Positions 59,099-59,461 of a stretch of DNA of 64,000 nucleotides are shown here, piece by piece. This stretch comes from Escherichia coli (GTDB lineage Bacteria > Pseudomonadota > Gammaproteobacteria > Enterobacterales > Enterobacteriaceae), in assembly GCF_029227855.1 (NCBI RefSeq), contig NZ_CP074356.1. The stretch is one strand, 5' to 3'. Position numbers and translations under genes: made by a program. Each line of letters starts with the position of its first letter. Position 1 is the stretch's first letter. The notes under the pieces were generated by a model. The model did no database searches and had not been told where the DNA came from. It worked only from the letters and a program-made list of their open reading frames with translations.

Positions 59099-59461
59099 AC
59101 ACCACCAATGGCTGGCCTGGAGAAATCGCCAGGCCAGCCTGGTTATAGCAGTAATTGCAGCAGCTGGGCGAGGGCAAACTTCACCGCTAATGCGAATGCC
59201 GTTTCGCAGTCGCCAGCAAAATTACTTTTTTTGTATACCCTTCCGTTATAATAATTTTCAAATTTATAAATCTGATTGTTCTGAAATATGTTTAAGTCTC
59301 TTTAATCTTCTTCTTACTTTAGTGAGTAAAATTCTCTGAATATTTGACAGCTAGTTGCCTGATTTTAAATGCCTTATAACAATTGCAGTATTCTTATTTG
59401 TCAATTATAAAAATAGCAACCAGACTTAATAAGTCAAACCAAACGCAATTAAGGAGTCAGT

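Follow-up and report, generated by a model that had tools for sequence, protein, structure and literature searches.

A remnant of ydeJ between dcp and ydeI in Escherichia coli: a deletion scar common to a large part of the species

Introduction

In Escherichia coli K-12 MG1655, dgcZ, ydeI, ydeJ (b1537), dcp, ydfG and rspR follow one another in this order, ydeJ being 519 nt long. In the 64,000-nt stretch of E. coli DNA analysed here (contig NZ_CP074356.1; hereafter, the window), the end of dcp (59098) and the start of ydeI (59462) are separated by 363 nt (59099-59461), and a sequence-only reading had pointed out that no gene lies there, where K-12 carries ydeJ. This was correct, as b1537 is found between ydeI and dcp in MG1655. 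The question is what became of ydeJ in this genome: whether it has been lost, whether K-12 has gained it, and whether what stands in its place does anything.

YdeJ is a single-domain protein of the CinA/PncC family (PF02464; NCBIfam NF002972). It has been described as devoid of NMN deamidase activity, with substitutions in the active-site blocks (PMC3855486). [quoted passage not shown]

Results

Both genes flanking the interval are intact. On the left, dcp (peptidyl-dipeptidase Dcp) occupies 57053-59098 on the plus strand, as an open reading frame and, with 2046 nt, in the PGAP annotation of NZ_AP045174.1. On the right, ydeI (59462-59854, plus strand) encodes a BOF/OB-fold periplasmic stress protein of 130 aa, recognised by the NCBIfam equivalog NF007471 at 258.9 bits (cutoff 179) and by Pfam as BOF. 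The list of open reading frames starts dcp at a TTG at 56987 and dgcZ at a GTG at 60103, versus 57053 and 60109 in the annotation of a near-identical genome; the longer frames (with the extra 56987-57052 and 60103-60108) are probably over-extensions.

When the 64-kb window was searched with K-12 YdeJ by tblastn, the sole match was obtained at 59176-59223 on the minus strand, corresponding to residues 147-162, so that ydeJ is not located elsewhere in the window and the gap holds just a C-terminal remnant. The short start-less frame that had been noticed on the minus strand turned out to be the 3' end of ydeJ. It spans 59143-59223 and comprises the last ~80 nt of the gene, that is, 26 codons and the stop (59143-59145). 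Its 80-81 nt align to nt 440-519 of K-12 ydeJ with 93.8% identity, and its translation, …FAGDCETAFALAVKFALAQLLQLLL followed by the stop, matches the C-terminus of K-12 YdeJ (…FAGDCETVLALAVRFALAQLLQLLL, stop) at 22 of the last 25 residues, with three substitutions. The frame has no start codon, and the list of open reading frames contains none of 30 aa or more in frame with it. Taking into account that the CinA domain covers residues 19-171 of K-12 YdeJ and that only the ~26 last codons are left, this is not an intact gene, its position between ydeI and dcp and its convergent orientation towards dcp being those of ydeJ in the outgroups described below.

The remnant is already annotated in RefSeq. 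At these coordinates it is a PGAP pseudogene (AC0J0T_RS11985) in the 99.9%-identical NZ_AP045174.1, and K9U07_RS02265 in NZ_CP083512.1 is a further record of it; PGAP describes it as 'incomplete; partial in the middle of a contig; missing N-terminus'. The scar is thus an annotated, widespread and ordinary feature. The description of the interval as mostly A+T-rich and noncoding has to be divided: the first part applies to 59224-59461 (27% G+C) and fails for 59099-59223 (55% G+C), and the second fails for the quarter of the interval that is a gene remnant and a RefSeq-annotated pseudogene.

Pairwise alignment with K-12 reveals a single 475-nt gap with collinear homology on both sides. The segment missing from the window consists of nt 1-440 of ydeJ and 35 nt upstream, equivalent to NC_000913.3 1624738-1625212 (4739-5213 in the K-12 excerpt L002, in which ydeJ is 4774-5292), and with it the start codon and 146 of the 172 codons have been lost. 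At 59223/59224 the remnant gives way to sequence found in K-12 35 nt upstream of the start codon of ydeJ, forming the junction CAGCAAAAT/TACTTTTTTT. The K-12 contexts of the two breakpoints are CAGCAAAAT/GCAT and GGTGAT/TTGC, which share 1 nt of microhomology. The K-12 alignment and a repeat scan disclosed no IS fragment, target-site duplication or direct repeat of 5 nt or more at the breakpoints; there is no foreign DNA at the junction, and no repeat family crosses it.

From these data, the interval is very probably a scar left by one old deletion of 475 nt, non-homologous in nature, which inactivated ydeJ. Taking into account the 1-nt microhomology and the lack of any IS or repeat footprint, we infer an illegitimate event, which would have arisen by end-joining or replication slippage, although a single junction does not allow the mechanism to be recovered. 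The event left behind the dead ~80-nt 3' fragment, a hairpin and 238 nt (59224-59461) of the formerly divergent ydeI-ydeJ control region, which now lie upstream of ydeI only, since the ydeJ start is gone. The survival of these 238 nt accounts for dcp and ydeI being still intact.

The sequence around the junction is the most diverged of the locus. Identity to K-12 amounts to 98.1% for dcp, 98.0% for ydeI, 98.5% for dgcZ and 99.1% for ydfG, and to 93.8% for the remnant and 84.4% for the 80 nt to the right of the junction; the 238-nt upstream region reaches 91.1% overall, and the 158 nt of it adjoining ydeI 95.5%. Such divergence on the junction side is what unconstrained sequence would show, but the differences involved are few (5 of 81 and 12 of 77 aligned positions), and they could also result from ordinary fast intergenic evolution.

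The distribution of this arrangement was determined among 5426 complete E. coli genomes. Counts made with long queries were confounded, as pieces of a BLAST match up to ~500 nt apart are joined and K-12-type and window-type genomes both reach 100% coverage; for this reason, 68-nt queries spanning the junctions were used. At least 80% of ydeJ is present in 3607 genomes, carriers including K-12, DH5alpha, O157:H7, O145, O111:H8 and O91:H21. The junction of the window, as a full-length match of the 68-nt query, was found in 1630, that is, in ~30%, which is a lower bound. The presence of one junction in 1630 independently finished genomes rules out an error of sequencing or assembly in the window as the cause of the missing gene. 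Subtraction gives a somewhat different figure for genomes lacking ydeJ (5418 minus 3607, or 1811), and the ~180 genomes by which the two counts differ are likely explained by the 28-nt seed required by megablast and by other ydeJ lesions. In the same way, the query made of the ydeJ gene misses many B2 remnants, in which an extra SNP leaves no 28-nt seed, and so the 1095 genomes without a ydeJ match are not a count of complete absence. In 10 of 10 sampled remnant-bearing genomes, ydeJ DNA matches a single place.

Some of the junction carriers have gone further. UM146 and ST131 MNCRE44 share the ydeJ junction with the window base for base, as well as the same 81-nt remnant annotation, and carry an additional deletion of ~503 nt, equivalent to window 59264-59766. 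It takes away the ydeI promoter and ~100 N-terminal codons, leaving a 90-nt ydeI remnant of the ~30 last codons (region 3044-3252 in excerpt L003, from ST131 MNCRE44, and 2372-2580 in L004, from UM146). Full-length matches to this second junction were obtained in 1123 of the 5426 genomes, in which both ydeJ and ydeI are therefore lost. This agrees with the 1134 genomes that cover less than 80% of a 1401-nt query. All the sampled genomes with the ydeI deletion contain both remnants, with a match span of 898 bp (1401 minus 503). Since every one of them holds the ydeJ remnant, the deletion in ydeJ came first and that in ydeI second. The allele of the window, with ydeJ dead and ydeI intact, is carried by ~507 genomes when counted directly (1630 minus 1123) and by ~677 when 3607 is subtracted from 4284; E. 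coli 042, PCN033 and JNEC-KY178 are carriers.

Thus, of the two possibilities that the sequence-only reading had left side by side, a deletion or a strain-specific difference, both apply in comparison with K-12, from which the window differs by the 475-nt deletion, except that the difference is not peculiar to this strain: the ydeJ-deletion allele is lineage-wide and common to a large part of the species. We take 042 to belong to phylogroup D, UM146 and ST131 to B2, K-12 to A, O157:H7 to E and O111:H8 to B1.

A single origin of the junction is suggested by the fact that the window and ST131 are identical to the base at a site where microhomology is limited to 1 nt. For a single event to account for the junction in strains of B2, D and F type, these groups would have to share an ancestor that carried it, or else recombination would have to have spread it. 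The carriers do fall in more than one phylogroup (042 as opposed to UM146 and ST131), as they would if the deletion had recurred at a hotspot and the shared junction did not reflect common descent. However, with 1 nt of microhomology and no flanking repeats, nothing marks these breakpoints as a hotspot, and the window and ST131 share, besides the junction, SNPs on both sides of it that set them apart from K-12, which makes recurrence very improbable.

A presence/absence pattern has no direction of its own. With ydeJ present in K-12, O157:H7 and O111-type strains and lacking in 042, UM146 and ST131, it would also be compatible with an ancestral window arrangement and an insertion of ydeJ in K-12-like lineages. 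The polarity was established from outgroup loci, obtained by protein search and contig look-ups. In three of them, the BOF (ydeI), CinA (ydeJ) and Peptidase_M3 (dcp) genes are arranged as in K-12, with ydfG and rspR coming next: a locus of E. fergusonii type, whose YdeJ (P0034) is 66% identical; another Escherichia lineage, with a YdeJ (P0014) 87% identical; and Salmonella bongori (P0031), where ydeJ and dcp are separated by an additional small gene of the KGG family. The occurrence of ydeI-ydeJ-dcp in these three loci indicates that the state of the window is derived and that of K-12 ancestral, and not that the interval is the normal arrangement. Moreover, ~80 nt from the 3' end of ydeJ persist in the window, correctly placed and oriented, and an insertion in K-12-like lineages is, as a result, scarcely credible.

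A scan of contigs with peptide patterns of K-12 YdeJ listed mainly generic CinA/PncC proteins, and no Escherichia or Salmonella locus was among the matches listed. Of these matches, four Enterobacteriaceae loci were informative, each with a ydeJ homologue close to ydeI but with dcp missing from the surrounding 3.5 kb; in Enterobacter and Lelliottia the ydeJ homologue lies ~1.1 kb from the ydeI homologue.

Two further features of the outgroup loci can be mentioned. The additional gene of S. bongori (L090/L091 4648-4830) encodes a 60-aa KGG-family stress protein and is absent from Escherichia, from which it follows that the ydeJ-dcp site has been variable more than once. In the Escherichia lineage with the 87%-identical YdeJ, genes for a rhodanese-domain protein and a DJ-1/AraC-type regulator are located between ydeE and mgtS (L088 282-1746), and these are absent from both the window and K-12.

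The palindrome that had been described in the interval is perfect, as claimed: its arms, GGCTGGCCTGG (59110-59120) and CCAGGCCAGCC (59129-59139), are fully complementary and form a stem of 11 bp with an 8-nt spacer as the loop. The hairpin (59110-59139) lies 11 nt past the dcp stop and 3 nt past the ydeJ stop, where the 3' ends of dcp and of the ydeJ remnant face each other. Its fold reaches -30.6 kcal/mol on the plus strand (z = -5.4) and -29.4 kcal/mol on the minus strand (z = -4.0), and on neither strand did any of 200 shuffled sequences give as good a fold. It is, therefore, the stable G+C-rich stem just downstream of stop codons that is expected of the stem-loop of an intrinsic terminator. 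The tails 3' of the stem are TGGTTATAGC on the plus strand and ATTGGTGGTGTTTATAC on the minus strand, and no run of at least five T follows the stem directly on either of them; the terminator consensus scan, which requires at least five T within 8 nt, missed the hairpin for this reason.

The hairpin is also present in K-12, with arms of 10 bp, so it is part of the normal locus and not a product of the deletion. In ST131 the stem has one mismatch, and the 87%-YdeJ lineage (P0014) retains a hairpin in this position, altered by a G-U change and with another loop. In the E. fergusonii-type locus (L086 4519-4563), the same convergent dcp/ydeJ spacer contains an unrelated hairpin, ACGGGCC…GGCCCGT, followed by seven T; there the element has been replaced and its position conserved. 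A hairpin conserved in position fits a putative terminator shared by two convergent genes, a function that we infer. The palindrome was also considered as a REP or mobile element; this was discarded, as it is single-copy in the region, with no copy nearby, and lies exactly between two stop codons.

It could be argued that the scar is still active, either because the ydeJ promoter, the remnant and the hairpin now constitute a new small RNA unit, or because a small protein is encoded there. The 238 nt of the former ydeJ upstream region have been kept, one sigma-70-like site is found in them on the minus strand (59437-59410), and the hairpin stands 3 nt past the remnant stop with a moderately U-rich minus-strand tail. 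Furthermore, there are plus-strand open reading frames of 47 aa (59108-59251) and 49 aa (59190-59339), and the ydeJ promoter of Salmonella is active and supercoiling-sensitive (PMC7387798). Against this, the promoter-like sites number one versus a mean of 1.5 in shuffled sequence, and the consensus scan of the gap for promoters and terminators gave no excess over shuffled sequence; there is no Rfam match in 59099-59461 at E <= 1; PGAP calls only the pseudogene; most of the upstream region has been deleted in B2-type genomes; and the junction side, being the most diverged part of the locus (84-94% versus 98-99%), suggests drift over constraint. An active scar is, in consequence, quite unlikely.

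Around the gap, the only Rfam match in 58800-61500 at E <= 1 is the small RNA MgrR (STnc560, 281 bits, 61011-61224, plus strand), which overlaps mgtT (61114-61218, minus strand) and mgtS (61218-61313, minus strand), as in K-12. The regulator RcdA has been reported to bind the ydeI-ydeJ spacer of K-12 and to affect ydeI expression (PMC3535384); neither the spacer of the window nor that of K-12 contains an exact RcdA box (TTGTnnACA), and both have sites with one mismatch. In Shigella flexneri, the candidate small RNAs Ssr13 and Ssr37 have been described in the ydeJ/SF1559 spacer (PMC4782007).

Discussion

The loss of ydeJ was probably tolerated because YdeJ, a paralogue of the NMN deamidase PncC, is catalytically degenerate and dispensable. 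Three facts make it tolerable: the lack of deamidase activity, the viability of the Salmonella mutant, and the fast evolution of the protein, with only 66% identity between the E. coli and the E. fergusonii sequences. If the Salmonella rdsA mutants are a guide, E. coli strains with the deletion may hold their DNA slightly more negatively supercoiled, and supercoiling homeostasis or tolerance to stress might be different in strains without YdeJ/RdsA, of which those of B2 type also lack YdeI. In itself, the ydeJ scar matters little.

It has also been considered that the loss of ydeJ was selected in a B2/D/F-type ancestor, or that the orphan promoter-remnant-hairpin cassette became a new small RNA; we regard this as unlikely. 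Had the loss been selected, it would represent the first step in dismantling a ydeJ-ydeI stress module, completed by the B2 deletion of ydeI, and effects on the supercoiling set-point or on envelope stress should be measurable in extraintestinal pathogenic E. coli.

A separate matter is the name of the protein. NF002972, and hence PGAP, calls YdeJ '2-oxo-tetronate isomerase', though it has the CinA/PncC fold, and in K-12 the protein for which this activity has been validated by experiment is b2739 (ygbM). A literature search found no published support for this name as applied to YdeJ. Possibly the family was given a wrong name, which would then have been propagated to thousands of entries in RefSeq.

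From a practical point of view, the junction is a handy lineage marker, which parts ~30% of the complete E. coli genomes from the rest, and the locus offers a tidy series of stepwise gene decay, from the intact arrangement to the loss of ydeJ and then to the loss of both ydeJ and ydeI.

Comparison with Known Systems

Like the intrinsic bidirectional terminators, the hairpin at 59110-59139 is G+C-rich, perfect, stable on both strands and placed between convergent genes; unlike them, it has no canonical T-run, and its role in termination is putative.

With respect to ydeJ (b1537) of K-12 and rdsA of Salmonella Typhimurium, the remnant corresponds to the 3' end of the orthologue and agrees with it in position and orientation; in contrast to these intact genes, it cannot make the protein, having lost the start codon, 146 of the 172 codons and the adjoining 35 nt upstream.

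Finally, in comparison with the B2-type allele of UM146 and ST131 MNCRE44, in which ydeI has been reduced to a remnant, the window keeps this gene whole, and it is thus an intermediate stage of stepwise decay, in which ydeJ is dead and ydeI intact.
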